From Candidatus Krumholzibacteriia bacterium (GTDB lineage: Bacteria > Krumholzibacteriota > Krumholzibacteriia > LZORAL124-64-63), in the NCBI GenBank assembly GCA_016744705.1, contig JADGDU010000004.1, positions 118,801 to 182,800 of the forward strand: DNA of 64,000 nucleotides, given 5' to 3'. The translations under genes were made by a program, and so were the position numbers. A model generated the notes under the pieces. It worked only from the letters and a program-made list of their open reading frames with translations, had not been told where the DNA came from and made no database searches. Each line of letters starts with the position of its first letter. Positions within the stretch are counted from its first letter, which is position 1. Shown here piece after piece: positions 16,690-40,001 of this stretch.

Positions 16690-16710
16690 GCTCATTTCCC
16701 TCAGGTTTTG

Positions 16711-16750
16711 ACAAAGAGTCCTCCCAGCTCCTGGGAGGACTCTTTGTTTT
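16711..16750 (+). terminator. Intrinsic terminator after the rrf2 gene
   Basis: 17-bp stem ACAAAGAGTCCTCCCAG / CTGGGAGGACTCTTTGT with a 3-nt loop and a T-rich tail. Confidence 0.85.
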
Positions 16751-16785
16751 GTCTGCTAATATTTGATCTATTTCTCCAATCCCCG

Positions 16786-16813
16786 TTGACTATCACTCCC
16801 GCCGGAATAACCT
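16786..16813 (+). promoter_or_regulatory. Candidate sigma70 promoter of pta-ackA
   Basis: TTGACT - 16 nt - TAACCT between the terminator and the pta start. Confidence 0.45.
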
Positions 16814-16871
16814 TAGCACTGAAGAGAATTTGTTTCCTGGGTTAAGGTGTCCTGAATGGGAGTATCGAGTC

Positions 16872-17864: not shown

Positions 17865-17883
17865 ACAGGAGAGACCGTCCATC

Positions 17884-19092
17884 ATGAGTACCAGCCAGAA
17901 TGTCCTGGTGATCAATTGCGGTAGCAGCTCGTTAAAGTACCAGCTGCTGAATATGGCCGATGAAAACGTCATGGCCAAAGGCCTGATCGAACGCATTGGC
18001 ATGCAGGACGGGGTGCACACCCTGAACCGCCCCCAGGAAGATGATTTTAAGGAAGTCCTCCCCATTGAGGATCATGCCCGGGCTATCGAATTGGTCATGG
18101 CTGCCTTGGTCGATGAAGGCCATGGGGTTCTCAAATCCATGTCCGAAGTCAATGCCGTGGGGCATCGGGTCGTGCATGCCGGAGAGAAATACAGTGGTTC
18201 GGTACCCATTGACGACGACGTGATCGCCGCCCTGGAAGAATGTGTCAGCCTGGCTCCGTTGCATAATCCCGCCAACATCACGGGAATTCGGGCTGCGCAA
18301 AAGGTGATGCCCGATGTGCCAATGGTAGGCGTTTTCGATACGGCCTTCCATCAGAGCATGCCGGATCGGGCCTACATCTACCCCATCCCCTATTACCTGT
18401 ATGAAGAGCACCAAATCCGCCGCTACGGATTTCACGGCACCAGTCACCGCTACGTCACTCTGCGCGCCGCTGAAATGATGGAATGCACCCCGGCAGATTT
18501 GAACCTCATCACCTGCCACCTGGGCAACGGGGCCTCAGTGGCTGCCGTTCTGGGCGGACAATCGGTGGATACCAGCATGGGTCTGACTCCTCTTGAAGGA
18601 CTCATGATGGGCACCCGCAGTGGCGACATCGACCCCGCCATGGTGGGTTTCCTCAGCCGCAAACTGGGCAAAGATCTGTCTGAAATCGAAAAAATGCTCA
18701 ACAAGGAAAGCGGCATGTTGGGTATCAGCGGCATCAGCAGTGATTTGCGCGATGTGGAACGCGAATACGCCAACGGCAACGACCGCGCCCGCCTGGCCCT
18801 GGAAGTTTACGGCTACCACATCCGCAAATACATAGGCGCCTACGCTGTCGCTCTCGGCCGAGTGGACGCCATCGTCTTCACCGCCGGTGTTGGCGAACAC
18901 GCCTCTCTGGTTCGCGAATGGGCCTGCCAAGGTCTGGAAGCCATCGGTGCCATTCTGGACCCCTTCAAGAACGCCACACGACATGACGAATCTGTCATTT
19001 CCAAAATGAGCAGCCGCGTCAAAATCATGATCATCCCCACCAACGAAGAACTCATGATTGCCCGCGATACCGCAGAGTTAGTCCTAAGCTAG
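17884..19092 (+). CDS. ackA: Acetate kinase
   Basis: VINCGSSSLK, GHRVVH, APLHNP, RYGFHGTSH, HLGNG, MGTRSGD, IPTNEE. Start reassigned to 17884. Confidence 0.96.
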   Translation: MSTSQNVLVINCGSSSLKYQLLNMADENVMAKGLIERIGMQDGVHTLNRPQEDDFKEVLPIEDHARAIELVMAALVDEGHGVLKSMSEVNAVGHRVVHAGEKYSGSVPIDDDVIAALEECVSLAPLHNPANITGIRAAQKVMPDVPMVGVFDTAFHQSMPDRAYIYPIPYYLYEEHQIRRYGFHGTSHRYVTLRAAEMMECTPADLNLITCHLGNGASVAAVLGGQSVDTSMGLTPLEGLMMGTRSGDIDPAMVGFLSRKLGKDLSEIEKMLNKESGMLGISGISSDLRDVEREYANGNDRARLALEVYGYHIRKYIGAYAVALGRVDAIVFTAGVGEHASLVREWACQGLEAIGAILDPFKNATRHDESVISKMSSRVKIMIIPTNEELMIARDTAELVLS

Positions 19093-19115
19093 CCTTCCTG
19101 AGGTTAGGTCCTAAG

Positions 19116-19149
19116 TAAATAGCGAGCCCTCCGGAGGGCTCGCTATTTA
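19116..19149. terminator. Bidirectional terminator (perfect 34-bp palindrome) between ackA and the PhzF-like gene
   Basis: TAAATAGCGAGCCCTCCGGAGGGCTCGCTATTTA equals its own reverse complement and sits at a convergent junction. Confidence 0.85.
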
Positions 19150-19165
19150 TTTATGCACCCTACCC

Positions 19166-20098
19166 TCAAAAAGCCGACACCTGAGCCTTGCGAGCAAAAT
19201 GGAATGAGCCACGCATGACGACCGACCCGGTGGCTGTCAGGTTGATGGTTGTTATGGTTCCGTTGGTTGTGATGACCTGGAGCTGGGCCAGAGTGGGACG
19301 ACCCAGGCTGTGCCCCTGTTCGGTGGTGATGGTGGTTTGAATGGTGGAGGGGACCATTTTGCGGTCAACGATATAGGCGGCTGCGGCAGCCAGGCTGGTG
19401 CCGCTGGCGATGTCTTCTTTGGGGCCCATTCTAGGCTGGAAAAAACGACATTGAAAGTCGGAATCCTGATTGATGGTTTCGGGACAGATGAGCGTTAGGC
19501 CGCCAACGCCCCGGCGGTCGGTCAGAGAGTTGATGGCCGCCTGGTTCAGGAATGAGCCCCGCATGGTTTGGCGATCCGCCACCGGCACGATGATTTGATC
19601 GAAACCACAAGAAATGCGTTGGGGACCGTGGTCACCCAGACTCAACAGTTCCGGCTCAACCCCCAAGGCTTGGGCCACCTCCTGGACCGGAACAGGCTCC
19701 CCAAATCGGGGGGCGGGCAACTCCAAGGTAACTTCAGTATTACCGGTTTGGTTGCGTTTGAGAGTCACCGGTAGAATGCCTGCGCCCGTTTCCAGCCGGA
19801 AAGTGGAACCATGGGCCGTGGGCTTGTAGAAACCCCGGTCCGCCATGGAAATGAAAGCTGCGATAACCACATGCCCGCTCAGGTTCGCCTCGAGGCGGCT
19901 GGTGAAGAAGCGCAGGCGAACGTCGGCTCCGGGGGTGGCCGGTGGCAGAACAAAGCCCGCTTCCATGGAAAGTTCATCAGTGATTTGCAGCATCTCAGCT
20001 TCGGTCAAACTACCTGCATTGGGAATGATAGCCGCGGGGTTGCCGGTGAAAGGTCGGTCAGCGAAAGCATCAACGATGTGAAAAGGAATAATAGCCAT
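19166..20098 (-). CDS. PhzF family isomerase/epimerase
   Basis: VDAFADRPFTGNPAA, LRFFT...E..LSGH, EDIASG, EQGHSLGRP. Confidence 0.85.
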   Translation of the reverse strand: MAIIPFHIVDAFADRPFTGNPAAIIPNAGSLTEAEMLQITDELSMEAGFVLPPATPGADVRLRFFTSRLEANLSGHVVIAAFISMADRGFYKPTAHGSTFRLETGAGILPVTLKRNQTGNTEVTLELPAPRFGEPVPVQEVAQALGVEPELLSLGDHGPQRISCGFDQIIVPVADRQTMRGSFLNQAAINSLTDRRGVGGLTLICPETINQDSDFQCRFFQPRMGPKEDIASGTSLAAAAAYIVDRKMVPSTIQTTITTEQGHSLGRPTLAQLQVITTNGTITTINLTATGSVVMRGSFHFARKAQVSAF

Positions 20099-20209
20099 GA
20101 GCGACCTCTTTCGAAATGGCAACGCGCCAGCGTCGCCGCCAAGGAAACCGAAAGTGACTCAGAACAATGATCTGAAGCAGATTTATGTGGTCTCTTAACG
20201 GTGCTGGGT

Positions 20210-20268: not shown

Positions 20269-20838
20269 CTAACCAAAACACAATCCACAATCAGGGCAAT
20301 CCACCTCTTCCCCACCCAGCTCAAAACCACACGCCGGGCAGGATTCAATTTCATATTCCCGTGCAAAGCCATGCTCCTGGCCCGGGTGCAGCGCTGCAAA
20401 CTCTTTTCTGATAATGGCTTCGGCCTTATCGTAATTTTCCATTCCTACAAAAATCATATATTGAAACCCTTCGACCACACCGCCCACTGGAACATGGCCT
20501 GCAGTTCCTCCAGAAACCATCGTGCCAAATACAACGGAAAAACTGTGTTTCAAAGCAGCTGATTTGTATTGCGTGAACGGCAAAATCGAAGCGTGAATTC
20601 CTGCCGCAGCCAAATGCCCCAGATAGGATTCGATGATGGGTTCATCATCAACAGTCAATTGTCCTAAAATTTTTCCTTCAGGTACGTTGTCCCAACCGGC
20701 CTCCTCAATCTTGCCTGCCAAAACCCCTTCGGTCGTTGGAGCATCCCATTGTAAAGGGATTTCACAATCGCTGCAGGTTTGGGCCCGTGAGAGATATTCA
20801 GCACCGCAGTTGGGGCAAATTTTGTGCATCTCTGGCAT
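20269..20838 (-). CDS. Hypothetical protein with N- and C-terminal zinc ribbons
   Basis: CPNCG...CSDC at the N-terminus and CPACG...CPDCG at the C-terminus; GGAGG RBS. Confidence 0.75.
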   Translation of the reverse strand: MPEMHKICPNCGAEYLSRAQTCSDCEIPLQWDAPTTEGVLAGKIEEAGWDNVPEGKILGQLTVDDEPIIESYLGHLAAAGIHASILPFTQYKSAALKHSFSVVFGTMVSGGTAGHVPVGGVVEGFQYMIFVGMENYDKAEAIIRKEFAALHPGQEHGFAREYEIESCPACGFELGGEEVDCPDCGLCFG

Positions 20839-21011: not shown

Positions 21012-23072
21012 ATGGTTTCCACTCAAGGCATTTTCCGCACTCTGCTCCTGCTGTTCATTCTGGCCACCAGCGCCCTGCCTACTGCTGCCACTACGGTGGA
21101 TGCCCTCTCCCTATATAATCAGGCCTGCGATGCCAGCCTCGCCGGGCAAACAGATTCGGCTCAGGTTCTATTCCAACAAGCCCTGCAGGCCGGATTTGAT
21201 GATCTTCGCTACGCTCTTTCAGACCCGGACTTGGATAATTTGAGAGCATCGAGTGAATTTAAGGATCTGCTCCTCAACCACCAAAGCAACCTGACTCTGC
21301 TCAGCAGTGAGCGGGGGCTTGAACTGGAAAGCCAGCAATGGACCCCATGGACTGAATTGGAAGCATCCTCTGGTACCAACCAGCAACCAGCCACCATGCG
21401 CCTGCAATGGCAACCGCTGGGATTGGATTTTGAAGTCAAGCTATCCGGAGAGATGGCCACAGCATTCAACGGCACCACGGCGCCTCCCGCCAGCGGCGGC
21501 CCCAGTATGATGATCACTTTGGCCATACTTGACGGAACCTCACCCTATGAAAGCACCAATTCATTCCATTTTCTTTTCGGAAAGAACAAAACATCCGGTA
21601 TGGGCGCTCTCTACCTGGGAAATGGCTGGCAACCGGTCAACGAACTGACGCCAAACATAACATCCCCGGTAAAAGATCAGATTCTCCTCAGCGGGACCAT
21701 CACCTGGCAAACCATTCTGCCTTACCATCCTTTGGTCGATACCACCTTGGGTTTGAACATTGCCCTGCAAAGCGGTGGTGCCGAAAACCACACTCAGACT
21801 TTGTTCCCCGACCCGCAAGCGCTGGCTCCGGGCTCAGAATTTCATCGCTTTGTCCCCGCCATTTTCGACCTCGGCTCCACAGATTACGAAGCCATGGTGG
21901 GACATATGAGCCAGAGTGTGGTATCTGATGACCCCCTGCAATGCGACCTGAATGTGCTTTCCTTTGAAACCGGCACCGGGTACCTGCAAATGGACTTCCT
22001 GGACGAAAAGGGTCAATCAGTATTGGACGGAGGAGCCCGGCCAGTGCCCATGGAATTGCAGAGTGGCGTCAATTCCCTCACCCAATCGGCAGATTTCCGG
22101 GCCTTGAAATTGGGGCCTTACCTGGTGAAAGTTGATCTGGAATTACCCTCGGGCAACACCATGACCTGGAGCTCCCTTGTTCTGAACATGGGCCCCCACT
22201 GGCAAACAAATTTCCAGCAACGAATCGACAAACTATCCGCTCAGGATCAACCCACGGCCGATTTCTATATGCACACTGTAGAATCGGCCATTGATCTCCT
22301 GGCATCGCGGCGCCACCCGGGAAGCCTGACCACCACTCTGCTGGAATTGGACGCCTTTGTGATTGCGGGAACTGCCAGCGGTAGCATCTTGCCCAATAGC
22401 GGAGTTTTTATCCTGGTATGGAACGACAGCTTGGGCCAGGAGCGTTTTTGCAGTCTCTACCTACCGGTGGGTTACAAGAAAAACACAGGCCTTGAGCCGG
22501 TGGTCCTATGGGCCAATGCAGCCGGGGTGGAAAGACGGCTGGCCGCCAGAATTGGCAAATTTGCTGAGTACCCGCGCAAATCGCCCATTCCCGCTGCCGC
22601 CGAAGATAAAAAAACTCCCATTTACCTGGTCCCCCACTCACCAGAGAAACCTTATGCCTCCCTTGATGCTGAAGTGGCCGATATGCACGCCTTCCTCCAA
22701 TGGGTTGAGAGTTATTTCCAAACCGAAGCCACAGCCCTCGCTGGCATGAATGCGGCCTCCGGAGCGGTGCTCGATTTTTCCCGACTCCATCCGGAAATGC
22801 TTTCCCGCATCCTGATCTATTCCGGCGCCTTGCTGGATCCCTGGCCTCAAGCCAACGCTTCATTTTTGGAGAGCAAATTTCCTGCAAAACCAAAGAACTA
22901 CCCTCCTCTGACCTGGATTGATTTTTTCAGGGAGACTCAGGCGGCGGGTCAGGGCCAGTTGTTGCTATCAGTTCTGGACAAGGCAGGATACATTCATGGC
23001 CCGGTGGAAAAGGTCAAAGGCGGCCTCAGCCTGACCCAGGTGGGCGACCGCCTGGTTCTTTGGGTAGAATAG
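21012..23072 (+). CDS. Secreted multidomain protein: TPR-like repeat, beta-rich central region, degenerate alpha/beta-hydrolase
   Basis: Signal peptide; YNQAC...ALQAGFDD...SDPDLDNLR (TPR-like); C-terminal SLYLPVGY...PVVLW...ALAGMNAASGA resembling an esterase fold. Confidence 0.7.
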   Translation: MVSTQGIFRTLLLLFILATSALPTAATTVDALSLYNQACDASLAGQTDSAQVLFQQALQAGFDDLRYALSDPDLDNLRASSEFKDLLLNHQSNLTLLSSERGLELESQQWTPWTELEASSGTNQQPATMRLQWQPLGLDFEVKLSGEMATAFNGTTAPPASGGPSMMITLAILDGTSPYESTNSFHFLFGKNKTSGMGALYLGNGWQPVNELTPNITSPVKDQILLSGTITWQTILPYHPLVDTTLGLNIALQSGGAENHTQTLFPDPQALAPGSEFHRFVPAIFDLGSTDYEAMVGHMSQSVVSDDPLQCDLNVLSFETGTGYLQMDFLDEKGQSVLDGGARPVPMELQSGVNSLTQSADFRALKLGPYLVKVDLELPSGNTMTWSSLVLNMGPHWQTNFQQRIDKLSAQDQPTADFYMHTVESAIDLLASRRHPGSLTTTLLELDAFVIAGTASGSILPNSGVFILVWNDSLGQERFCSLYLPVGYKKNTGLEPVVLWANAAGVERRLAARIGKFAEYPRKSPIPAAAEDKKTPIYLVPHSPEKPYASLDAEVADMHAFLQWVESYFQTEATALAGMNAASGAVLDFSRLHPEMLSRILIYSGALLDPWPQANASFLESKFPAKPKNYPPLTWIDFFRETQAAGQGQLLLSVLDKAGYIHGPVEKVKGGLSLTQVGDRLVLWVE

Positions 23073-23164
23073 CCCAACAAAACCGCTGGTTTTTCAAGAC
23101 TTGACCGTTGTGTTGGTGGATGAGTATGCCACCATTGCACCATTTTTTTTTTGGAGGATTCATT

Positions 23165-24400
23165 GTGACCCACCGCCGCGCCCTGGATATGCTGCTTATT
23201 TTGCTGGGATTGAGTATTTTTGCTACTCCCGCCTCTTTCGCCCAACCCATCATCGACAATCCAGCAGAGCCAGCCAAGGGCCACAAAGACATGCAATTGC
23301 AAGAGATGTGGCGCATTGGCGGAGAAGATGATGAAGAGACTCTGCTGGGCGTAGTGAACCGAGTGCTGGCCGATGATGAGGATAACGTCTATTTGCTGGA
23401 TACCCAATTGACAGAAGTTCTGGTCATTGATGCCGATGGCGAGTATTTGCTTTCTCTGGGCAGCCAGGGAGAAGGTCCTGGTGAATTGCGGCGCGCCGCC
23501 GATGTTCTTTTCATGCCCGACGGGGCTGTGGGATTGGTTCAGGGTTTTCCAGGGAAAATTGTCAAAGTTGACCATCAGGGTATTCCCGCCGGAGAATTCC
23601 GCCCCGGCGGCGATGACCCCGAAGCCGGAGGATTTTTTGCTCTCCGGGGTGCCGCTTCCAGAGGAGGACGCCTGGTCTTCAGTGGAACCCGCATCACTCG
23701 GGGCGAAGACTCTCGCACTGCTGTCAATTTCATTGCCTCTTTTGATGAAGATGGCGCCCAACAGACCCTCTACCACGATACAACTTCGGTTCGGCAGTTC
23801 CGGGGAGAGGATTTTTCTGAAAAAAAGGAATTTTTCCCTCATGAAAGTGGCTGGGCTCTGGCAGCCGATGGCAGGGTCTACGTCAATAAAGAGCGAAACA
23901 ATTACGAGATAATGGTTTACAGCCCAAGTGGTGCTCTTGAGCGCACCATAAAACGCCCTTATCAGAGCTACAAAAGAAGCGCTGAAGAGAAAAAAATCGC
24001 CGAAGATGGCCTCATGCCTTGGAGAAGACGCAACCGCAGCCGCTTTAACTTCGTAGTGGAGCCGACTGAAGCAGATGTTGCTGGCATGCGGGTTACAGAC
24101 GATGGGCACCTCTGGGTTTTACCCAGCCGGGGCCTGAGAAACCAACCCGAGGGCGTGCATTCCACCTGGGATGTTTTCGACAATGCAGGCCAATTCGAAC
24201 AAACCGTAGCAGTGCATTGCGAAGGCGTGGGACTTCGCGACAAACTCTTTTTCACAGATACCGGTTTGGTCGTTTTAGTTAAACAATATGCCGATGCGAT
24301 GAAAGCCTTCCAGGGCCAAAATCGCGAAGAAGATGAGGCAGCGGAAGAAGAGATTGAAGGACTGCCTCTGGAAGTGATTTGTTACCGGATTATTCCGTGA
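23165..24400 (+). CDS. Secreted 6-bladed beta-propeller (NHL/DUF5128-like), copy 1
   Basis: GTG start after GGAGG; signal peptide; WRIGG, NVYLLD, GSQGEGPGE, DGRVYV, DGHLWV, WDVFDNAG blade motifs. Confidence 0.8.
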   Translation: MTHRRALDMLLILLGLSIFATPASFAQPIIDNPAEPAKGHKDMQLQEMWRIGGEDDEETLLGVVNRVLADDEDNVYLLDTQLTEVLVIDADGEYLLSLGSQGEGPGELRRAADVLFMPDGAVGLVQGFPGKIVKVDHQGIPAGEFRPGGDDPEAGGFFALRGAASRGGRLVFSGTRITRGEDSRTAVNFIASFDEDGAQQTLYHDTTSVRQFRGEDFSEKKEFFPHESGWALAADGRVYVNKERNNYEIMVYSPSGALERTIKRPYQSYKRSAEEKKIAEDGLMPWRRRNRSRFNFVVEPTEADVAGMRVTDDGHLWVLPSRGLRNQPEGVHSTWDVFDNAGQFEQTVAVHCEGVGLRDKLFFTDTGLVVLVKQYADAMKAFQGQNREEDEAAEEEIEGLPLEVICYRIIP

Positions 24401-24414
24401 TTCAGGAGGATTTC

Positions 24415-25629
24415 ATGCTGCACCATAGAAATGTCGCTGTTCTTTGTCTGGGCGTTGTGATGATTTTGGCCACAGGAGCCCTATCTCAAACCGTCATCAA
24501 CAATCCCGCCCAACCTGCCCAAGGAATCCAAAAGGTCTCATTAGTTGAACAATGGCGCATTGGCGGCGATGATGAAGATCTCTTCTTTGGCACCGTGGGT
24601 CGCATCCAAATGGGCCCCGACGGAAACCTCTACATTTTAGACGGACAGCTGAGCCAGGTCCAGGTCATCAGCCCTGATGGTGAACACATAGCCTCTTTGA
24701 GCAAAGAAGGCGACGGCCCCGGTGAAGTGCGCCGACCCGGCGACATGTATTTGTCCGACGATGGAACCATCAACATCCTCAATGGCTTCCCAGGCAAAGT
24801 TGTCTCCATCACCCCTGATGGCACACCCGTAAGCACTGTGGGCTACTCCATTGATGGCAAACAGACCCAGTTTGGTGTTTTCATCCGTGGTATGGCCACC
24901 GAGAATGGGATCATTCTTGGGGGCATCAACATGACTTTTGGCGGCGGCCCCCTGAGCGAGCAGAATTATTACCTGGCCCGTTGCGATGCTGAAGGAAACG
25001 AAATCAATCGTTTGGCAGAAAAAAGCAATACTATCGATTACAGTGATTTCCGCCTCACAGAAGAATCCATGGACTTTATCTGGGCCCGCATGGCCGCCGG
25101 ACCTGATGGACAAATTTATCTGGGCCTGGACCGGGATCAATATTCCATCTCCGTCATGGATCCCGATGGCACAGTCAACCGCATCATCAACCGCTCACTT
25201 GATATCCCTGCCCGCTCCGACCGGCAAAAGAAGATAGCCACCCAGATCATCGAAGCGGTGGCTGTCAATTATCAGGCTCCTCTGCAGGGCTTGGAAATTG
25301 AGGACAAAGAACCGGCCATTGGCAATATCACTGTTACCAACGACAACCACATCTGGGTTAGCCCCGGTGTGGGAGATGAGGCATTGCCCGCGGGAACATG
25401 GGCCATCTTTGATGTGTTCGATCCCGACGGAAAATTTGAAAAGCAGGTGGCATTTGAAGGTTCTTTTAACCGGAATCGTGATTCCATCACCATTTTGCCT
25501 GACGGCCGTATCCTGGTAACAACAGGCGCTCTGGATGCATTCCTCAATCAAATGGGTGCCGTCAACGACGCCGACGAACAACCGGAAATCGACCCTCTGG
25601 AAATCATTTGTTTCAAAATTGAAAATTAA
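24415..25629 (+). CDS. Secreted 6-bladed beta-propeller (NHL/DUF5128-like), copy 2
   Basis: ATG after AGGAGG; signal peptide; WRIGG, GNLYILD, KEGDGPGE, DGQIYL, NHIWV, FDVFDPDG; collinear with copy 1. Confidence 0.8.
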   Translation: MLHHRNVAVLCLGVVMILATGALSQTVINNPAQPAQGIQKVSLVEQWRIGGDDEDLFFGTVGRIQMGPDGNLYILDGQLSQVQVISPDGEHIASLSKEGDGPGEVRRPGDMYLSDDGTINILNGFPGKVVSITPDGTPVSTVGYSIDGKQTQFGVFIRGMATENGIILGGINMTFGGGPLSEQNYYLARCDAEGNEINRLAEKSNTIDYSDFRLTEESMDFIWARMAAGPDGQIYLGLDRDQYSISVMDPDGTVNRIINRSLDIPARSDRQKKIATQIIEAVAVNYQAPLQGLEIEDKEPAIGNITVTNDNHIWVSPGVGDEALPAGTWAIFDVFDPDGKFEKQVAFEGSFNRNRDSITILPDGRILVTTGALDAFLNQMGAVNDADEQPEIDPLEIICFKIEN

Positions 25630-25655
25630 ACAGCTCACCTTTTGAAAGGCCGAAA

Positions 25656-26981
25656 ATGAAGACGTTCCTGACACTGGTTCCTTCCCGCCGGATGATGCTT
25701 GCGGCGATGCTGATCCTCTCCCTGGCCCTATTCAGTGGTTGTTTTGGCGAAGGTGGCGATGCTGCCTCCGCCGATTCCACCGCCACTGCTGACAGCGCGG
25801 GCGCCGATGAATCCGGCGAAAAAGAGAAGAAGAAGCCCAAGAAGGAAAAGTCCATCAAGGTTAATGTGGGAATGGTCACCCAAAATGACCTGGTGCTGCC
25901 CGTTTTTGCCGACGGAGCCATCCGCACGCCCAAATCCTTGTTGATCAAAACCAAAGTCAGTGGCGAGCTGCTTTCGGTGCTTGTGCGAGACGGAGACGTG
26001 GTGCGCAAGGGACAGGTACTGGCCCGCATCGATTCCCGCGAGTATGAAATAGCCTTGGAGGAGAGTCGGTACCGCCATCTGCAGGCCCTGAGCCAGATGG
26101 CCGCCGAAGCTGATACCTTCACCGTCAATCATGCGGCCATGAAGGAATTTACGGTGGGCCGAGATGAACTGGAAAAGCTATACAAAAGAGGCGGCCTGAC
26201 TCGCGAAGAATATAAAAACCGCATTTTGGAATTGGAAATGGACAGTCTGAACAAGGGAGCCTTCCGCGAAGCTGTCTTCCAGCAACGCACCGGTTTGGCC
26301 GAAGCACGCATGGCCGAAGAACGGGCTGAATTAAACCTGGAATACACGGACATCCGTGCTCCCTTCTCTGGCGTCATTCAGGGTATGACCATGGTGGTCG
26401 GTGAGATTGTCACCACCGGCACCAGTGTTTGCACCATATTCAACAATGACAATCTTGAAGCCGTCATCAATGTCCTGGAAGCTGATTTGGGCAACCTCAA
26501 AGTTGGTCGCCCGGTGTTGCTGGCCGTGCCCGCCACCAACGACACCCTCCAGGCCAAAATTGATGTCATCAGCCCCACCCTCGATGCGGCCACACGCACC
26601 TGCGAAGTGATCATCCGTTTCAAAAACCCCGAAGGAAAATACCGCCCTGGCATGTTCGTGCGCACTCGGATTGCCGGTTGGGTTTACCCTGACAAATTGA
26701 TGGTTCCCAAGTCAGCCATCCTCATCCGCGACAATCGCACTCTTGTGTTCAAGAGGGATGAAGACCGTGCCAAATGGTTGTATGTGGACACCGGCCTGCA
26801 AAATGACGACTGGGTGGAAATTCTGGCAGTGCACAGTGGCGGCAGCCTCGCCCCCGGAGACGAAGTGGTCGTCAGCGATCATCTCACTCTGGCACACGAA
26901 GCCAAGATTAAGGTGCGCAAACGCTTGCCGGCGGCCAACCGCTGGGGATTTGCTGATCTGGGTGAAGGTGCCGCACAATGA
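25656..26981 (+). CDS. RND periplasmic adaptor (membrane fusion protein), lipoprotein
   Basis: Lipobox LFSGC; SGELLSVLVRDGDVVRKGQVL, TDIRAPFSG, YRPGMFV, LMVPKSAI, VDTGL. Confidence 0.92.
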   Translation: MKTFLTLVPSRRMMLAAMLILSLALFSGCFGEGGDAASADSTATADSAGADESGEKEKKKPKKEKSIKVNVGMVTQNDLVLPVFADGAIRTPKSLLIKTKVSGELLSVLVRDGDVVRKGQVLARIDSREYEIALEESRYRHLQALSQMAAEADTFTVNHAAMKEFTVGRDELEKLYKRGGLTREEYKNRILELEMDSLNKGAFREAVFQQRTGLAEARMAEERAELNLEYTDIRAPFSGVIQGMTMVVGEIVTTGTSVCTIFNNDNLEAVINVLEADLGNLKVGRPVLLAVPATNDTLQAKIDVISPTLDAATRTCEVIIRFKNPEGKYRPGMFVRTRIAGWVYPDKLMVPKSAILIRDNRTLVFKRDEDRAKWLYVDTGLQNDDWVEILAVHSGGSLAPGDEVVVSDHLTLAHEAKIKVRKRLPAANRWGFADLGEGAAQ

Positions 26982-29900
26982 TCATCAAGACAGCAGTCCG
27001 GCGACCGGTCGCCATTCTGATGGTTTTCCTGGGCATGGTGTTGATTGGTTATCGCGCCAAGCAGCTGCTTTCCATCGATCTTTTGCCTACGATCAACTAC
27101 CCTAATCTCACGGTCATCACCAACTACGAAGACACACCCGCTGATGATTTGACTCGGCTGGTGACCCGTCCACTGGAAGAGGTTATCACCGGACTGGCGG
27201 GCGTGCGTCGGGTGGTTTCCAAAACGCGAGAAGGTGTTTCAACCATCACCGTGCAGTATGAGTGGGGCACCGAGATGGACTTTGCGAATCTGCATTTGCG
27301 GGAGTCCATTGATCGGGTCTCTTATCAGGAAGATTTCCCCGAAGCTGCAGATCGTCCATTGATATTGCGTTGGGATCCCAGCGCTCGGCCCATTGCCATC
27401 CTTGTGCTGCATGGGGACAGTCCCATGGCTCGCATGACAGAGTTTGCCAGGGAAGTGGTCAAGCCTGCCATCGAACAGATTGATGGTGTGAGCCAGGCTG
27501 AGGTCATCGGTGGTGCCGACCGTGAAATTCTGGTGCAACCAGACTTTGGCAAAATGCGTTTGTACGGACTGACCATGGCTGACCTGGGCCAAGCCTTGCG
27601 AGTGGCCAACATCAGTTTCCCCGGCGGGCGTATCCGTAAAGGACCTCTGCATTTGCCCCTGCGCATTTTGGGTGAGTTTGAAAACTTGGATGATATTCGC
27701 CAGACGGAAATCCCTGCCGCCGGCCCCGGCATTACCATCAGCGATGTAGCCGAAGTTCTGGACACTGCCAAGGAACCCGATGGTTACACCCTCAACGACA
27801 ACGAAGAAGTTGTCTCTCTGCACCTCTATAAAGATGTGGGCGAAAACACCATCACCACCACTGAAGAAGTGGACCGCATTCTGGACATCCTGCAGGGACA
27901 ATACCCTGATCTGGATTATAACTTTATATACCGTGATGCCGATTTTGTTGAAGAGAGTTTCAAGGGCATGAACCAGTCGCTGATTTATGGCGCCGGCCTG
28001 GCCTTCATCGTGCTCTTTTTCTTCCTCATGGATTGGCGCAGCCCCATCGTTGTGGGCCTGGCCATTCCTGTATCGATCATGACAACGTTTGCCTTCCTGC
28101 ACTTTGCCAAAGTGGGCCTGAACCTGATGTCCCTTGGGGGGCTCAGCCTGGCTGCGGGTATGCTCGTGGATAACTCCATCGTGGTGCTGGAGAACATCAA
28201 CCGCCACCTGAAACTCAAACGCAAGGATGGCGAATCCATCTCCGACGTGTGCGCTCGCGCCGCTGGTGAAGTGGCTTCTCCGGTCATCGCTGCTACTCTC
28301 ACTACCGTAGCCGTTTTCTTTCCTGTGATTTATGTGCCTGGCATTGCCGGTGAGTTTTTTCGCGACCAGGCCATGACCGTGACCATCAGCCTGATCGTAT
28401 CTATTTTTGCTGCCTTGCTGCTGCAACCAATGCTTTCTGCCCACATTCTGCGCATTCCTGGTGATCGCCCGGCCCCGATATTTCGCCCCGGTGAACGCAT
28501 TTTTCAGGCCATTCAGTCGTTTTATCACCGGCGGTTAGAAACGGTCATGGATCATAAGATCTTATTCTTTACCGCTTTAACTATCTGCGTGGTATTGGCC
28601 GGTTATCTGGGCTCCACCATGCGCTTGGGATTCATGCCTGACCGCACCCGCGGAGATTTCACACTGGCAGTGGAGTTACCCGCCGGCACACCCTTGGAGA
28701 TGACCAGGAAGGCCGCCTCAGACCTGGCCGAATTCATCGCTCCCATGGATGAAGTGGAAACAGTTTATGCTCAAGTGGGTGTCACTGAACGCACCCTGGC
28801 CAGCCTCAAAGATTACAGTGCTGCCAATACCGCCCGCATCCGAGTGATGCTGCACCCCAGTCGTCATGGCCGGGGTGATTTGGCCAAGATCAAAGAGAGA
28901 CTGCAACCTATGCTTGAGGCTCAAGTGGGCGCTATCTTCACCTACCATGAAGAAGGCGTCGGCTTGCGGGAAATCCTGGCCAGTGGTGAGGCAGCTTTCA
29001 CGCTGGGTATCACCGCCGAAAAAAGCACCAATGCCTTGGCCACCGCTGAAACTCTTTTGCCCCTCCTGCGCGAAGTCCCCGGTCTGCAAGGCGTGGAGAT
29101 GGACCGGGTCATGGGCAACCCCACAGTAGAAATCAGCATCAACCGGGAAAAAGCCCTGCGCTTTGGACTTGAGCCGGAAAGCCTGGCTCAGGAATTGAAG
29201 AACCGTATCCAGGGTACCGTGGCCACGACTTATAATGAAGTGGAACAACGCATCGATATTGCCGTCAGACTGCCAAGGGAAACTCGGTATGATCTGCCCA
29301 CCGTGCTGGCCTCCCCCATTGCCATAGGCGACAAAACCGTGCCCCTGGGTTCCTTTGTCATCCAGACCACAGGCACCCCGGTGCGTGAAATCGTTCGCCG
29401 GGATCAGCGACGCCAAATCACTCTCACCAGCGATGTGACCGACCGCGCCGTGGCTGATATTTGGGTCGACGTCAATGCCATCCTGGATGACACCAAATTG
29501 CTGGATGGCGTAGCCTTCCAAACCGGTGGCGAGCAGGAAGAAATCAACACCAGCTTCCGGGATTTGGGTTGGGCTTTGCTGCTATCCGCCCTCCTGGTTT
29601 ATATGATTCTGGCTGCCCAGTTTGAAAGTTTCCTGGACCCGCTCATCATTTCTGCGGTGCTGCCGGTGGGTATTGCCGGTGCCCTGATCACTCTGTATCT
29701 CACCGGGCAAACCATGAACATCATTTCGCTCATCGGTATGATTGCTCTGCTGGGTATTGCGGTGAACGATGCCATTGTAAAAGTGGCCACCATCCGGCGC
29801 TTGCGTGAAGGCGGGCTGCGAGGCCGCGAGGCCATTCTGCAAGCCAGCACCTTGCGCTTCCGCCCCATCATCATGACCACCGTGACCACTGTGTTGGCCA

Positions 29901-30058
29901 TGGTCCCCATGGGGTTGGGCTTGGGCACGGGCGAGCAAATGCAGCGGCCCCTGGCCATCACAATCATTGGCGGGCTGAGCATTGCCACCATGCTGACTCT
30001 GTTTTTGACGCCGATCGTTTACGAGATGCTGCACAGCCGCACTGATCGGGAGTATTGA
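26978..30058 (+). CDS. RND permease (AcrB/HAE1-like), subunit 1
   Basis: 1026 aa; RRPVAI, GMLVDNSIVVLENI, RFRPIIMTT, PLAITIIGGL; start overlaps the MFP stop. Confidence 0.95.
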   Translation: MIIKTAVRRPVAILMVFLGMVLIGYRAKQLLSIDLLPTINYPNLTVITNYEDTPADDLTRLVTRPLEEVITGLAGVRRVVSKTREGVSTITVQYEWGTEMDFANLHLRESIDRVSYQEDFPEAADRPLILRWDPSARPIAILVLHGDSPMARMTEFAREVVKPAIEQIDGVSQAEVIGGADREILVQPDFGKMRLYGLTMADLGQALRVANISFPGGRIRKGPLHLPLRILGEFENLDDIRQTEIPAAGPGITISDVAEVLDTAKEPDGYTLNDNEEVVSLHLYKDVGENTITTTEEVDRILDILQGQYPDLDYNFIYRDADFVEESFKGMNQSLIYGAGLAFIVLFFFLMDWRSPIVVGLAIPVSIMTTFAFLHFAKVGLNLMSLGGLSLAAGMLVDNSIVVLENINRHLKLKRKDGESISDVCARAAGEVASPVIAATLTTVAVFFPVIYVPGIAGEFFRDQAMTVTISLIVSIFAALLLQPMLSAHILRIPGDRPAPIFRPGERIFQAIQSFYHRRLETVMDHKILFFTALTICVVLAGYLGSTMRLGFMPDRTRGDFTLAVELPAGTPLEMTRKAASDLAEFIAPMDEVETVYAQVGVTERTLASLKDYSAANTARIRVMLHPSRHGRGDLAKIKERLQPMLEAQVGAIFTYHEEGVGLREILASGEAAFTLGITAEKSTNALATAETLLPLLREVPGLQGVEMDRVMGNPTVEISINREKALRFGLEPESLAQELKNRIQGTVATTYNEVEQRIDIAVRLPRETRYDLPTVLASPIAIGDKTVPLGSFVIQTTGTPVREIVRRDQRRQITLTSDVTDRAVADIWVDVNAILDDTKLLDGVAFQTGGEQEEINTSFRDLGWALLLSALLVYMILAAQFESFLDPLIISAVLPVGIAGALITLYLTGQTMNIISLIGMIALLGIAVNDAIVKVATIRRLREGGLRGREAILQASTLRFRPIIMTTVTTVLAMVPMGLGLGTGEQMQRPLAITIIGGLSIATMLTLFLTPIVYEMLHSRTDREY

Positions 30059-30062
30059 GCTT

Positions 30063-33000
30063 ATGATCCGTTTCGCTGTTGACCACCCCGTAGCCACCTG
30101 GATGCTATTTGCCGCCCTGGTGGTGACGGGTCTGTACGCTGTGCCGAGGCTGAACATAGAAGCCATGCCCGAAACCGATCTGCCCGAACTGTCCATAGTC
30201 ACGGGCTGGAACGGCGCCAGCCCCAGTGCCATATTGCGCTCCATCACTTTGCCCATTGAAGAGGCAGTGGCCGGTTGCCACGGTGTGGAAGATTTGGACA
30301 GCATTTCCCGTCATGGTCAAAGCTCCGTCACGGTAAAGTTCAAACGCGATACCAATATGGAATTTGCCCGACTCGAGCTGTCCGAAAGACTGGGAGCCGT
30401 GAGGCGCACCTTACCGGCCCAGGCCAGCTCGCCCTTCATCCGGCCCTTTGTGCCTGAAGAGTTGCGCAGCGAAGAATTCTTCACACTTAGCCTGGTCTCG
30501 CCTCTTTCCATGAATGAATTGCGCGACCGGGCCGAGACCTGGTTGCTGCCTCGATTTTTGGCCATCAGCGGTGTGGCCGATGCCGAATTGCGCGGCGGCG
30601 CCCGCCCTCTGGTGCGCGTGCTTCTGGATCTGGAAATGGTGGAACGGTACGGACTGACTGCCGACGGCATCAGTGAGCGCATCAGTGCCCTCGATGATAT
30701 TGTTCCCGCCGGTGCCATTCGCAATTCGGGTCAGGAATTCACCGTCAGTGTGCGGGATTCCGCTTCGGTTGCCCGACTTGAAAACACCGTGCTGCGAACC
30801 ATCGGCAGCCAGCCCATCACTCTCGGTCACGTGGGCCAGGTGAAGCCAGATTATGAAGATGTTTCATTCTACGCCCGCATCAACGGCGACAATGTAATCA
30901 CCCTGGTCATCACCAAACGCAGTGGCCAGAACAGCATCTCCGTAAGCAAGCAATTGCGTGAAGAATTACCCCGCATTGAAGCGGCAGCACCCTTCCCCAT
31001 CACCTTTGAAATTGATCAGGATGAAGGCGCCGATCTGGAAGAAAAGCTGACTGACCTGGTCACTCGTTCTGGCATCATCCTGCTTCTGCTTTTCCTGATG
31101 TTGGCCATTGCCCTCAAGCGGGTTCGGCTTACGGGTATCGTTGTCCTTTCCATCGTTCTGGCCATCCTCATTTGCCTGAGCATGTTCTATCTGTTTGGGA
31201 TTTCGGTGAACTTTATCACCATCAGTGGCCTGACCGTTTGCTTCGGTATGTTGCTTGATAATAGCATTTTGGTTTTGGACGCCATCCACCGTCGCTTGTC
31301 AGGCAGCAAAGCCGCCGACGCCACCGAGGCCCTGGTCAGTGGTACCAGGGAAGTGGCCTTCCCCATCTTGGCCACAACCATGACCACCGTAGTGGCCTTC
31401 CTTTCTTTCATTTTCATGACCGACCGCTTGAGCCTCTTTTATGTTCCCCTGGCCATCAGTGTGGGCATCGCCATGCTGGCTTCCATCTTTGTGGCCTTTG
31501 GTTGGATTCCCGTGGCCCTGCGCGGACCCGCCGAAAGCGACATGCGCAACAGCAATTCCGCCGATGATGAATTTTCTCTCGGCGGATTATCCTTATTGTG
31601 GCGCTGGGCCCTGGGGGTTGTGATCCTGACAGTTATCGGCCTCAGCGGCCTGTGGATCTGGAAAGACTTACCCAACGTAGTCGATACATTACCCTGGGTT
31701 GCCGCTTCCGCTGCGCTGTTGATGTCCGTGGGAATCTTTGTCAGCTTTGTGGATGGATTGACCCGCTTCCACACCCGATTCTGGTTTCTTCCCATCGTGC
31801 TGACCATCGCTATTTTCGCCGGCACCTGGTACGTATTTGATGAGAAAGTGCGCACCGGCGGTTTCTGGCGCCCCCAGTCTGCAGAACAAATCGTGGTCTA
31901 CATTGAACGGCCTGTGGGCACCGACGTCAAACTGGCCAGTGCCACCATCCGCCTGTTCGAAGAAGAGGTTCTGCCGTTGCCCGAGGGAGTGCATATGCGC
32001 GCCAATGCCTCGAGCCAGCGGGCCTGGATCAACATGGAATTCGATGAAGAGATGTTGAGCACTGCCTACCCCGAAATGTATCGCAATAAATTTATTGTTC
32101 TGGCTGAAGAACTGGGCGGAATGTTCATCTGGATCAACGGATTTGGAGACACCTATATGAAAGGTGGGCGCGGTGGAGGCAACAGCAACTCCACAGTGCG
32201 CATCGACGGTTACAATTCCAAAGAGCTGAAAAAGATCAGCGATGGGGTGCTGGCGCGCCTGGACCGAAACCGCAGGGTTCGCAACGCACGGCTCAGCGAT
32301 GGTGGGCGTTTTTCCCGAGCCGGAACCGACGAAACTGTGATCATTTTGAACCGTGAGGTTCTGACGGAACACCGCTTGAGTGTGGCTGAAATGATGGGCC
32401 ACATCAGGCGCCTGCTGGGAGTGGACAGTCCCTGGCACATGATTCTGGACGGTGAAGACCAACGCCTGATGCTAACCTTTGACGACGCCGAAGAAATTGA
32501 ATACGACCAGATCATGGGCCGCATCATGACCACCTCCCGTGGTCAAAAAGTGCAGTTGGGCAAACTGATTTCCATTGAGAACAGACCCGAAATCAGCTCC
32601 ATCACCAGGCATGATCAGCGTTACAGCCAGCTTTTGAACTGGGAGTACATCGGCACCGACAGCATGAAACGGAAGTTCCTGGCCGACATTGTCAAAGGCA
32701 TTGAACTGCCCTACGGCTACACTGCCGAAGATATGAGTGGCGAGCAAATCACCGAAGAAGAAGAAGACCAACTCAAAGAAACTCTCTACTGGACTATAGT
32801 CTTCATCTTCATGGCCATGGCGGCCATGTTTGAAAGTTTCTTCCTGCCCTTCCTGGTGCTGCTGACTTTGCCCATGGCCATGGCCGGGGTGGGTGGCATT
32901 TACTGGGCCACCGGTGTGGAGTTTGATTCATCGGCCAAGATTGGCTTGATCCTCATGTTTGGTATTGTGGTGAATAACGCCATCCTGCTCATCAACCGCT

Positions 33001-33449
33001 TCCGGTTGCAGGTGCGGGAAATTATTGCAGAGAAAAGCTTCAGCACAGAGCTGGTTCCGGCCAAAGGTCGGCTGGGAGCCTTTGATTTGTGGCGTTTGGA
33101 AACGAAAGAGAGGCAGAGCATTCTGTCTCGGGCCATTGGAGAAGGGGTGCGCATTCAGATGCGCTCAATTCTACTGACCAGCGGCACCACTGTGGCCGGC
33201 ATGTTGCCCTTGATCTACAAAAATGATGCGTCCCAGGGCAATGACATCTGGCATAACCTGGCCCTCAGTTCCATCGGTGGCCTGACCAGTAGCACAGTGC
33301 TCATTCTCAGCGCCGTCCCCGCCCTCTACTGGATCTTTACCCGCTTCGGTTGGACTTTGGCCCGAGCCTGGCGAGCTATTACCAAATGGTCTCATAAAAT
33401 GCGCGGACATGCCGAACCCACCTCTGCTCTGGAAACTGACAATGGGTGA
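30063..33449 (+). CDS. RND permease (AcrB/HAE1-like), subunit 2, with insertions
   Basis: 1128 aa; DHPVAT, GMLLDNSILVLDAI, GIVVNNAILL, MRSILLTS. Confidence 0.93.
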   Translation: MIRFAVDHPVATWMLFAALVVTGLYAVPRLNIEAMPETDLPELSIVTGWNGASPSAILRSITLPIEEAVAGCHGVEDLDSISRHGQSSVTVKFKRDTNMEFARLELSERLGAVRRTLPAQASSPFIRPFVPEELRSEEFFTLSLVSPLSMNELRDRAETWLLPRFLAISGVADAELRGGARPLVRVLLDLEMVERYGLTADGISERISALDDIVPAGAIRNSGQEFTVSVRDSASVARLENTVLRTIGSQPITLGHVGQVKPDYEDVSFYARINGDNVITLVITKRSGQNSISVSKQLREELPRIEAAAPFPITFEIDQDEGADLEEKLTDLVTRSGIILLLLFLMLAIALKRVRLTGIVVLSIVLAILICLSMFYLFGISVNFITISGLTVCFGMLLDNSILVLDAIHRRLSGSKAADATEALVSGTREVAFPILATTMTTVVAFLSFIFMTDRLSLFYVPLAISVGIAMLASIFVAFGWIPVALRGPAESDMRNSNSADDEFSLGGLSLLWRWALGVVILTVIGLSGLWIWKDLPNVVDTLPWVAASAALLMSVGIFVSFVDGLTRFHTRFWFLPIVLTIAIFAGTWYVFDEKVRTGGFWRPQSAEQIVVYIERPVGTDVKLASATIRLFEEEVLPLPEGVHMRANASSQRAWINMEFDEEMLSTAYPEMYRNKFIVLAEELGGMFIWINGFGDTYMKGGRGGGNSNSTVRIDGYNSKELKKISDGVLARLDRNRRVRNARLSDGGRFSRAGTDETVIILNREVLTEHRLSVAEMMGHIRRLLGVDSPWHMILDGEDQRLMLTFDDAEEIEYDQIMGRIMTTSRGQKVQLGKLISIENRPEISSITRHDQRYSQLLNWEYIGTDSMKRKFLADIVKGIELPYGYTAEDMSGEQITEEEEDQLKETLYWTIVFIFMAMAAMFESFFLPFLVLLTLPMAMAGVGGIYWATGVEFDSSAKIGLILMFGIVVNNAILLINRFRLQVREIIAEKSFSTELVPAKGRLGAFDLWRLETKERQSILSRAIGEGVRIQMRSILLTSGTTVAGMLPLIYKNDASQGNDIWHNLALSSIGGLTSSTVLILSAVPALYWIFTRFGWTLARAWRAITKWSHKMRGHAEPTSALETDNG

Positions 33450-34599
33450 AACCGATGATTTGCTGGAGCAACTGACGGATCTTCGCCACAGTCTCCACCG
33501 GGAGGCAGAGCTATCCGGCCACGAGGTCGAAACAGCCTCAATGATGCACAAGTACTTCAGTGCGTGCCATCCGGACGAAATCCACGAAGGCCTGGGTGGA
33601 AATGGTTTGGCCGTGGTTTTTCATGCTCCTGAGAGGAAACCCGGCCCAGCCGTGATGCTACGAGCCGAACTGGACGCCCTTCCTCTTTTTGAAACTGGAG
33701 ACCTACCCTGGACCAGCCAAAATCTCGGCCGGGCTCACAAATGTGGACACGATGGCCACATGGCCATTCTGGCTGGAGTGGCGCGCCGGTTGCAAACCTA
33801 TCCACCCTTATCAGGTTCCGTAATCCTCTTGCTGCAACCCGCCGAAGAAACAGGCACCGGAGCCTTGGCCCTCCTGGCTGATGCGCGTTTTCAGGCCCTG
33901 AAGCCCCAATGGATTTTTGCTCTGCATAACCTGCCGGGATATCCTGCCTGGAGTATTCTCACCCGCGAAGGTGCCTTCGCTGCCGGCAGTGTGGGAGTTC
34001 GCATCATAATCAATGGAACCACCAGCCACGCCGCTTATCCCGAACAGGGTAAAAGCCCTGATTTGGCCATGGCTGAAATTGTCACCGGATTGGTCAATCT
34101 GGTAAATCCTGACAATGATAGTTTGGCTCTGGTCACGGTTGTGCATGCCCGCTTGGGAGAGCAAGCTTTTGGCATCAGTCCAGGCGATGCAGAAATTTTG
34201 GCCACACTCCGGGCTGATCAAAACAAAGTACTGCAGGAGCTCAAAATCAGGGCCGCAGCCTTGAGCAAAAAAGTGGCCCAGCAATATGATCTGGCCTTGG
34301 AAATAGAATATTGCGAAGAGTTTCCCGTCACCATGAATGACCCCGCGGCTGTGCAGGCCATTTGTCAGGTGGCTGCTGATTTGGATTTGGATGTGGAATC
34401 ACCGGATGAAAGCCCTTTCCGGTGGTCCGAAGATTTTGGTCTTTTGACTGAGTGGGCCACTCACGGCGCAATGTTCGGCTTGGGCGCTGGCCTGGACCAC
34501 CCGGTTTTGCATGGTCCCAATTATGATTTTAATGATGAATTGATTTTACCCGGCGTCACAATTTTAGAACGCATTTGCCGCCAGATCCAAGCAGAGTAG
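33442..34599 (+). CDS. M20 family amidohydrolase
   Basis: LHREAELSG, RAELDALP, HKCGHDGH, QPAEE, HNLPG, SEDF. ATG 33442 overlaps the RND2 stop. Confidence 0.92.
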   Translation: MGETDDLLEQLTDLRHSLHREAELSGHEVETASMMHKYFSACHPDEIHEGLGGNGLAVVFHAPERKPGPAVMLRAELDALPLFETGDLPWTSQNLGRAHKCGHDGHMAILAGVARRLQTYPPLSGSVILLLQPAEETGTGALALLADARFQALKPQWIFALHNLPGYPAWSILTREGAFAAGSVGVRIIINGTTSHAAYPEQGKSPDLAMAEIVTGLVNLVNPDNDSLALVTVVHARLGEQAFGISPGDAEILATLRADQNKVLQELKIRAAALSKKVAQQYDLALEIEYCEEFPVTMNDPAAVQAICQVAADLDLDVESPDESPFRWSEDFGLLTEWATHGAMFGLGAGLDHPVLHGPNYDFNDELILPGVTILERICRQIQAE

Positions 34600-34629: not shown

Positions 34630-35226
34630 TCAGCGGTACATTGATTTTAACGAATCCCAGCTGTGGGAATCGGTCGCCACCACCCCGCAGGGCGTCTCAC
34701 TGATCCGCGCTGTGCAGGCTCCATCGATGCCATTGTTCACAGCTCCGGAAACCATAACACCTACAGAATCGACAAACGTGGGATAAAGAGGGTCAAGACT
34801 GCTGGGTTCATAGCCACTCAGAGTAATGCACACTCCCTCATGAGAAGTGCCTATGTAAAAGAGGTGGAACGTCATCAAGATGTTGCTTTCCACTATGGGC
34901 ATGGGGCCTTGAAAGCCTATCATAAACTGCCCGTCACTGCCAAAATTGAAGCCTTGAAATCCGTTGGGATAGGCCCAATTAGTCACCATGGCAGGCCCTT
35001 CAATTTCCATCCCAAATTCAAGGCCTCCAAGGACCTCAAATGTGGGATTTTGCAGGATCAAATACAGACTAATGGGCGTGTATGGCGACAAGGTGCCTGC
35101 TTCAATGCAATCCAAATCTCCGAATGGGTCAAAATACAAGCCGAGGAGATTGTCCTCCTGGGCAAAAACCTGCCCCATACCCCCCAGCATGGCGATGAGC
35201 ACGAGACTGATGGCAAATCTCTTCAT
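34630..35226 (-). CDS. Secreted hypothetical protein ending in VATDSHSWDSLKSMYR
   Basis: GAGGAGG RBS, signal peptide MKRFAISLVLIAMLGGMGQVFA, beta-rich body with four Cys. Confidence 0.75.
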   Translation of the reverse strand: MKRFAISLVLIAMLGGMGQVFAQEDNLLGLYFDPFGDLDCIEAGTLSPYTPISLYLILQNPTFEVLGGLEFGMEIEGPAMVTNWAYPNGFQGFNFGSDGQFMIGFQGPMPIVESNILMTFHLFYIGTSHEGVCITLSGYEPSSLDPLYPTFVDSVGVMVSGAVNNGIDGACTARISETPCGVVATDSHSWDSLKSMYR

Positions 35227-35399
35227 AATATCCTCCTCTGAATAGCCCAAATCAGTTACCCCCTCGAACTATTATGGTATTGAACATTCAAGAAATGGTC
35301 AATGCAGTATACACGGCGTCTTTTCCATGGATTGCATTCAGAGTATGTTCTATCATAGCCACGGATGGATCCAACCGACTCCCCCAGCAAGGACGCCCA

Positions 35400-38061: not shown

Positions 38062-38062
38062 A

Positions 38063-39988: not shown

Positions 39989-40001
39989 AGGAAGGTAAGC
40001 C

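Follow-up and report, generated by a model that had tools for sequence, protein, structure and literature searches.

The DNA analysed here is a 64-kb stretch (hereafter the window) from an uncultured marine Krumholzibacteria-like bacterium, and its element of interest is a run of seven open reading frames (ORFs), all on the + strand, that spans 21012-34599 and encodes a two-permease pump of the resistance-nodulation-division (RND) type together with two secreted beta-propellers. The gaps between the seven genes, from 5′ to 3′, are 92, 14, 26, -4, 4 and -8 nt. After the first gene, which encodes a secreted TPR protein described below, come a distal propeller of 411 aa (23165..24400, +) and a second propeller of 404 aa (24415..25629, +) that is proximal to the gene for the membrane fusion protein (MFP), both of them Sec-signal, soluble periplasmic, six-bladed proteins of the NHL/DUF5128 type. 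These are followed by the MFP itself, a lipoprotein adaptor with a long alpha-hairpin (25656..26981, +), by permease RND-A (26978..30058, +; 1026 aa, 12 transmembrane (TM) helices), by the divergent permease RND-B (30063..33449, +; 1128 aa) and by a cytoplasmic M20 amidohydrolase. Shine-Dalgarno-like motifs stand ahead of the distal-propeller GTG start at 23165 (GGAGGA), the proximal-propeller ATG start at 24415 (AGGAGG) and the MFP ATG start at 25656 (GAAAGG). The original prediction, made from the letters and ORF translations, had described the last six genes (23165-34599) as coupled by gaps of 14, 26, -4, 4 and -8 nt, and these ORFs and gaps were confirmed; the domain calls likewise agree with its account of two signal-peptide propellers, a lipoprotein MFP, two distinct RND permeases (27% identical to one another) and an M20 protein. 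A scan of the locus for sigma70 promoters and terminators gave counts close to those in shuffled sequence, and the sequencing runs containing the stretch were four marine-metagenome DNA runs and no RNA run.

The conservation of this arrangement was examined with an RND-B profile built from an alignment of six orthologues, which recovered 80 loci from species-representative genomes with RND-B identities from 93% down to 45%. Neighbourhoods of these loci were mapped by tblastn, and a locus was taken as readable where at least 1.8 kb lay upstream of the MFP gene (n = 56). DUF5128 propellers were found on the same strand, directly upstream of the MFP gene, in 51 of the 56 readable loci, in one to three copies. 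A neighbourhood survey of this RND subfamily for co-occurring propellers had been set beforehand as a test of the original prediction, and its outcome was positive; recurrence at this frequency among informative loci of different species-level genomes is far beyond chance. Where at least 4.5 kb was readable, two propeller copies were present in 25 loci, one in 16, three in 6 and none in 5. The same order was present in the gene calls of six metagenomic and metagenome-assembled genome (MAG) loci (seven contigs), with 6-53 nt separating the proximal propeller gene from that of the MFP, and RND-A and RND-B were paired wherever a contig covers both positions, except in L057 and L065. The operon core is propeller(s)-MFP-RND-A-RND-B.

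The adjacency of propellers and pump also persists where the surroundings change. In L007 it is kept despite a TonB receptor, Omp85 and phospholipid-synthesis genes upstream, and it is kept in L038, L039, L067, L069, L072, L080 and L085, all of which are without phzF and TPR neighbours. In a tree of RND-B, propeller adjacency occurs in both deep clades, and the propeller-less loci (L040, L042, L053, L062 and L068) all fall in one RND-B subclade, with about three changes needed to account for the distribution. Since adjacency is present in both deep clades and its absence is confined to one subclade, it is best read as the ancestral state, with secondary loss or relocation. These five loci are Eisenbacteria-like and keep MFP-RND-A-RND-B, with unrelated genes in the place of the propellers. 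A gene for a C1-peptidase-like protein of 440 aa was seen downstream of RND-B in three of them, at a distance of 1.5 kb in L040 and L053 and of 8.5 kb in L062.

Homologues of the proximal propeller and of RND-B are hosted nearly exclusively by MAGs labelled Krumholzibacteriota or Krumholzibacteriia, and the few remaining hosts are labelled Eisenbacteria, Fermentibacteria, 'Fibrobacteraceae' or Acidobacteriota-like, or are unclassified. The module is a chromosomal operon typical of Krumholzibacteriota and of neighbouring uncultured groups labelled Eisenbacteria and Fermentibacteria. Elsewhere in the 64-kb window the genes are housekeeping in character (mfd, nifSU, MoxR/VWA, pfk, add, nadE, rrf2, pta, ackA, phzF, an ABC exporter, sdhCAB and others). 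In many Krumholzibacteria-like genomes synteny extends beyond the module, with pfk, the adenosine deaminase gene, nadE, rrf2, pta, ackA and phzF (on the - strand) upstream and sdhCAB downstream (12697-20122 and 37354-40772 in the window). Among the flanks of the 80 loci, no recurrent neighbour family was found beyond this general synteny (SdhB and a few others).

Both propellers pass the cut-off of the DUF5128 family (PF17170; 22.9 bits), the distal one with 27.4 bits and the proximal one with 24.2 bits, and they share 31% identity with each other. An AlphaFold2 (AF2) model of the proximal propeller from a 62-sequence alignment (pLDDT 92, pTM 0.88) has six blades, closed by an N-terminal strand and by a C-terminal 'PLE[VI]IC[YF]' strand that follows an acidic linker. 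Foldseek and profile searches matched this propeller to the NHL propellers Thin, TRIM71 and Brat, with top Foldseek matches at E = 1e-13 and an NHL profile match in the sequence as well, and further to two Bacteroides structural-genomics proteins, BF0058 (PDB 4raa) and a DUF4221 protein (PDB 3s9j), and to lactonase-type proteins such as Drp35; the Foldseek TM-scores were only about 0.5. The Foldseek matches, consisting of generic NHL propellers, the two structural-genomics proteins and lactonases, make the fold clear and define no ligand or active site. A hydrophobic N-terminal signal is present in 113 of 118 propeller homologues and a lipobox in only 6, and for this reason we take the propellers to be soluble exported proteins.

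In a tree of 97 pump-linked propellers, the MFP-proximal copies form one clade of 38 rows (SH-aLRT 100) that includes the gene at 24415-25629 and spans genomes labelled Krumholzi-, Eisen- and Fermentibacteria. The distal propellers, including the one at 23165-24400, fall in clades outside it. On this tree, the proximal and distal propellers are ancient paralogues whose order has been conserved. Together with the neighbourhood map, this result shows that soluble periplasmic NHL propellers, one to three per locus, are co-inherited with the pump in a fixed order directly upstream of the adaptor gene. The propellers have nonetheless diverged faster than the pump, with identities of 35-69% as against 57-87% for the pump parts; this faster evolution, along with the variable copy number, is more in keeping with an accessory that faces the substrate than with a fixed structural subunit.

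The adaptor and permeases have the general features of a tripartite RND pump of the HAE-1-like (AcrB/MdtB) type, with several departures from it. The MFP carries the lipobox LFSGC and matches TIGR01730 (RND_mfp) with 181 bits against a cut-off of 94.9, and it also matches HlyD_D23 and Biotin_lipoyl_2. Two symmetric 14-residue insertions, kept in 10 orthologues from different clades, lengthen its alpha-hairpin by about 28 residues relative to E. coli AcrA and MdtA; the placement of the RLS tip motif of the hairpin is ambiguous in the alignment. RND-A matches ACR_tran over residues 1-1021 (E = 1.7e-215), and RND-B matches the same family in three stretches (E = 2.2e-136). The closest solved relative of both permeases is E. 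coli MdtB (9lyq), at E = 8e-98 for RND-A and at E = 3e-60, over the N-terminal half only, for RND-B. Against the equivalog cut-offs, RND-A reached 367.6 of 1584 bits for NF007798 (MdtB) and 365.8 of 1774 bits for NF007905 (MdtC), and RND-B scored lower. Judged by these scores, the pump is similar to MdtABC but not an orthologue of it. Two additional hydrophobic segments lie between TM6 and TM7 of RND-B (approximately residues 504-529 and 545-563), giving 14 helices as predicted from hydropathy, and TM10 and TM11 of the same permease are separated by a cytoplasmic insert of about 45 aa. The docking-domain regions of both permeases align with those of AcrB, MdtB and MdtC without large gaps.

The residues of the proton relay were read from an alignment with E. 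coli AcrB, MdtB and MdtC (AcrB numbering). At positions 407-408 in TM4, the three E. coli proteins have D-D, and RND-A and RND-B both have D-N; at 940-941 in TM10, the E. coli proteins have K-N, RND-A has N-D and RND-B has N-N. In TM11, position 971 is R in the E. coli proteins and in RND-A and mostly Q in RND-B, and position 973 is R in all of them. The canonical relay (Asp407, Asp408, Lys940 and Arg971) is therefore present in neither permease. RND-A carries in its place a pseudo-symmetric pair, D-N in TM4 and N-D in TM10, along with R-x-R in TM11, and the sole acidic relay residue left in RND-B is the TM4 Asp. These motifs are conserved, depending on the motif, in 62-68 of 70 RND-A orthologues and in 63-67 of 69 RND-B orthologues.

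No OEP/TolC-family gene lies in the 64-kb window, as the original prediction had stated in describing the module as one without an outer-membrane factor (OMF), and no conserved OMF is found among the recurrent neighbour families in the flanks of the 80 genome loci. A tblastn search of the window and all loci (2.3 Mb) with E. coli TolC and CusC gave a sole match, in L106. By Pfam, the genes of this locus (83-7066) are those for a response regulator of the sigma54 type, a PAS histidine kinase, an OEP protein (PF02321, E = 1e-61) and, directly after it, two propellers in succession, at which point the contig ends; L101 (1-4090) overlaps it at 99-100% identity and runs from the OEP tail through two propellers to an MFP gene. 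Read together, the overlapping contigs show that at least one lineage, which is Fermentibacteria-like, has its propeller genes in a single cluster with an OMF gene before them and an MFP gene after them. In L039, which is labelled Fermentibacteria, this regulator pair also occurs, with two propeller genes, MFP, RND-A and RND-B after it and no OEP gene. The sigma54 regulator pair suggests that expression of the module in the lineage of L106 and L101 may be signal-regulated and sigma54-driven. Since E. coli acrAB and mdtABC are likewise without an OMF gene, an operon of this kind is ordinary for RND pumps, so that the absence, although correctly described for the window, does not distinguish this module. 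A normal outer-membrane partner is to be expected, because the related lineage has an OEP gene upstream; the long MFP hairpin and the intact docking domains agree with this expectation.

The genes at the two ends of the run are optional and not part of the core, as they accompany the pump in only a fraction of related loci. The first encodes a secreted protein of 686 aa (21012..23072, +) that matches NCBIfam TPR_END_plus at E = 2.4e-11. In its AF2 model (pLDDT 89.7), a TPR-like helical domain at the N-terminus is followed by two beta-sandwich domains, and a helical linker leads on to an alpha/beta-hydrolase fold at the C-terminus; Foldseek matched this last domain to the catalytic domains of S9 prolyl-oligopeptidase and feruloyl esterase. 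Asp occupies the nucleophile elbow in 22 of 33 orthologues, where the protein of the window has N580, the Ser/Asp/His catalytic triad is not conserved in the family, and no His is conserved among the 33 orthologues. The identification of this protein as a pseudo-hydrolase is thus supported, in line with the TPR/pseudo-esterase of the original prediction, and an ancestral form might have used an Asp nucleophile that has since been lost here. The gene is present in about two thirds of related loci (approximately 34 of 53). A 92-nt gap and a weak terminator-like hairpin (23036-23055) set it apart from the distal propeller gene, and it is probably a separate transcription unit. Between phzF and this gene lies an ORF on the - strand (20269-20838) for a 189-aa protein with zinc-ribbon motifs at its N- and C-terminus, which was not seen at the equivalent position in the related loci examined.

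At the other end, the M20 protein (33442..34599, +) is of the aminoacylase type, matching TIGR01891 with 202.6 bits against a cut-off of 153.75 as well as both Peptidase_M20 and M20_dimer, and its best solved relatives are YxeP, ILR1-like and N-acyl-aminoacylase proteins. Its gene overlaps RND-B by 8 nt and is translationally coupled to it here. It is adjacent to the pump in 10 of 58 related loci and present anywhere in the flank in 16 of 58. The protein has no signal peptide and is therefore assigned to the cytoplasm; this location and its rare adjacency identify it as an occasional passenger, and the earlier proposal that the hydrolase belongs to the export module is weakened. A 206-aa ORF without a Pfam match (34630-35250, -) is convergent to the M20 gene.

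Given the conserved linkage of propellers and pump, we consider it the probable explanation, held with modest confidence, that the operon encodes a tripartite-type RND machine in which the permeases form an MdtB2C-like heterotrimer, RND-A is likely proton-coupled and the propellers act on the pump substrate in the periplasm. In such a machine, RND-A and RND-B would assemble in the manner of MdtB2C, with RND-A as the proton-coupled subunit and RND-B as a specialised subunit having a degenerate relay and two extra helices, and the predicted OMF partner would usually be encoded away from the operon. The propellers would capture the substrate and hand it to the pump, as CusF does for CusCBA and NPC2 for NPC1, or would modify it before export. 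A more specific version, in which the propellers dock on the porter domains of RND-A/RND-B or on the extended MFP barrel and deliver or receive an endogenous lipid, glycolipid or secreted metabolite, and in which the extra helices and dead relay of RND-B evolved for this partnership, would amount to a new type of RND machine and a bacterial, propeller-based counterpart of hand-off by CusF or NPC2; this version is tentative and less likely than not.

Several observations weigh against a dedicated role of the propellers at the pump. In 5 of the 56 readable pump loci there are no adjacent propellers and unrelated genes stand upstream, and the conservation of gene order among close relatives is in part simple synteny, because extended synteny surrounds the module. 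The family also occurs by itself. Scanned reciprocally with the propeller profile, metagenome contigs gave 80 loci, 55 of them with more than 900 nt downstream; 24 of the 55 run from the propeller into MFP(-RND-A-RND-B), and the other 31, with propellers of 31-47% identity, have no downstream pump and have heterogeneous neighbours; no common theme emerged among the neighbours of these stand-alone genes (SpoIIE phosphatase, TPR, VWA, MerR and NmrA-like). In a tree of 191 sequences the stand-alone propellers fall mostly in clades of their own and the pump-linked or stand-alone state changes 13 times, with the stand-alone genes L094, L096 and L102 nested inside the MFP-proximal clade. An exhaustive search with the propeller profile gave about 1,121 clusters (50% identity) at E ≤ 1e-30 and 13,206 at E ≤ 1e-10. 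Pump-linked and stand-alone propellers share a set of invariant polar residues (E45, W47, D76, E104, E216, R260, R267, D333 and D356 in proximal numbering), which may mark a binding or active site or may be just structural hallmarks of NHL propellers. With so many stand-alone paralogues, the propeller family is independent of the pump and not made up exclusively of pump subunits. The pump nearly always brings propellers, yet the family exists without the pump, which argues for an autonomous biochemical activity that was recruited to the pump. The stand-alone paralogues thus favour an autonomous periplasmic role, in binding or in catalysis, over that of an obligate structural subunit.

The same paralogues lend themselves to an explanation by co-regulation only, in which the propellers are independent periplasmic enzymes or binding proteins (lactonase-like or connected with envelope stress) that share a promoter with the pump because both answer to one condition, and that contact neither the pump nor its substrate. 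That propellers in unrelated contexts have the same invariant residues, that the copy number varies from 0 to 3, and that the fold neighbours include the drug-responsive lactonase Drp35 are all consistent with this. However, the position directly upstream of the MFP gene and the order of the paralogues are kept down to about 45% RND-B identity and across differing flanks, and one lineage has its propellers placed between an OMF and an MFP gene. Such persistence would be unusual for co-regulation alone, and we judge this explanation unlikely, though far from negligible. It is improbable that the propellers are instead stoichiometric subunits that stabilise or anchor the pump, at the extended MFP hairpin barrel or the OMF junction, with no part in substrate handling. 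Two ancient paralogues in fixed order would suit such a role, as would the additional periplasmic surface offered by an MFP hairpin about 28 residues longer than that of AcrA and the unusual additions to RND-B, but a stoichiometric subunit would hardly be present in one copy in 16 loci, three in 6 and none in 5, diverge much faster than the pump parts and have stand-alone paralogues.

Slightly less probable again is a function in peptide maturation and export, with the propellers handling a small secreted peptide that is encoded elsewhere and exported by the pump. The precedent for it is the uncharacterised B. thetaiotaomicron BT0662-0669, which combine a six-bladed propeller, LepB and an RND adaptor; against it, neither a thioredoxin-like gene nor a small ORF for a secreted or Cys-rich product is present in or beside the cluster, where the intergenic gaps are 14-92 nt, and no family of small Cys-rich peptide or thioredoxin genes is conserved in the flanks of the 80 related loci. 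The original prediction had also entertained the propellers as the cargo of the pump, for which the position in the operon is the one argument. The substrates of RND pumps are small molecules, lipids or ions and not folded proteins of about 45 kDa, and since the propellers have Sec signals of their own and fold into 45-kDa proteins, a cargo role is very unlikely and was rejected. Action of the propellers on the substrate in the periplasm, as part of the machine outlined above, is the explanation that we retain.

Within the library searched, there was no paper on DUF5128 and none functionally linking NHL or six-bladed propellers to RND operons, so that the designation of this module as undescribed stands. 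The usual view of RND pumps is that of machines with three parts, with CusF and small membrane peptides (AcrZ, for example) as exceptions. The operon suggests an RND pump that has an unusual heteromeric core and is accompanied by conserved periplasmic accessory genes of a new class. If this is true, the propeller pair of a phylum-wide two-permease pump operon would represent a new class of periplasmic accessory component, and the module, with its roughly five genes, would be a defined and tractable system in which to ask how RND pumps receive their substrates from the periplasm. It would also be a natural case of an asymmetric heteromeric RND pump, with one subunit having a near-dead relay and 14 predicted helices, that bears on the division of labour between subunits in MdtB2C-type pumps.

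Of the characterised pumps, the module is closest in layout to MdtABC-TolC of E. coli and MuxABC-OpmB of P. aeruginosa, in which one MFP gene is also followed by two different, translationally coupled RND genes; E. coli mdtABC, as here, has no OMF gene in the operon. It differs from both in lacking an equivalent of Lys940, in having Asn in place of Asp408 in both permeases and Gln in place of Arg971 in RND-B, and in its two extra predicted RND-B helices and cytoplasmic insert, its longer MFP hairpin and the secreted propeller genes in the operon. CusCFBA of E. coli is alike in that its small operon joins MFP and RND genes to the gene of a soluble protein that Sec exports to the periplasm, and CusF sets the established precedent for handing a substrate over to an RND pump in that compartment. 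CusF, however, is a 110-aa OB-fold metallochaperone with no relation in sequence or fold to the 400-aa NHL propellers, and RND-A and RND-B are not of the CusA type; Pfam and NCBIfam scans gave no CusF-like match, the propeller fold differs and no metal-binding motif was identified in the propellers. In the eukaryotic pairs NPC1/NPC2 and Dispatched/Scube, a transporter with the RND fold and a soluble carrier pass a hydrophobic ligand between them on the side of the membrane away from the cytoplasm. These are alike in concept only, as the partner folds are unrelated to propellers and there is no homology. TolB of the Tol-Pal system is, like the propellers here, a soluble periplasmic six-bladed propeller and partners an envelope-spanning machine, but the present propellers are without its N-terminal domain, and no TolB match appeared in the family scans or among the listed fold matches. 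The Bacteroidota DUF5128 ('BF3164-type') propellers, such as BF0058, share both the Pfam family and the fold. In B. thetaiotaomicron BT0662-0669, gene lists in the literature place a six-bladed propeller, LepB and an RND adaptor as neighbours, and LepB sets that cluster apart from the one described here, in which the propellers are joined directly to an adaptor and two permeases.

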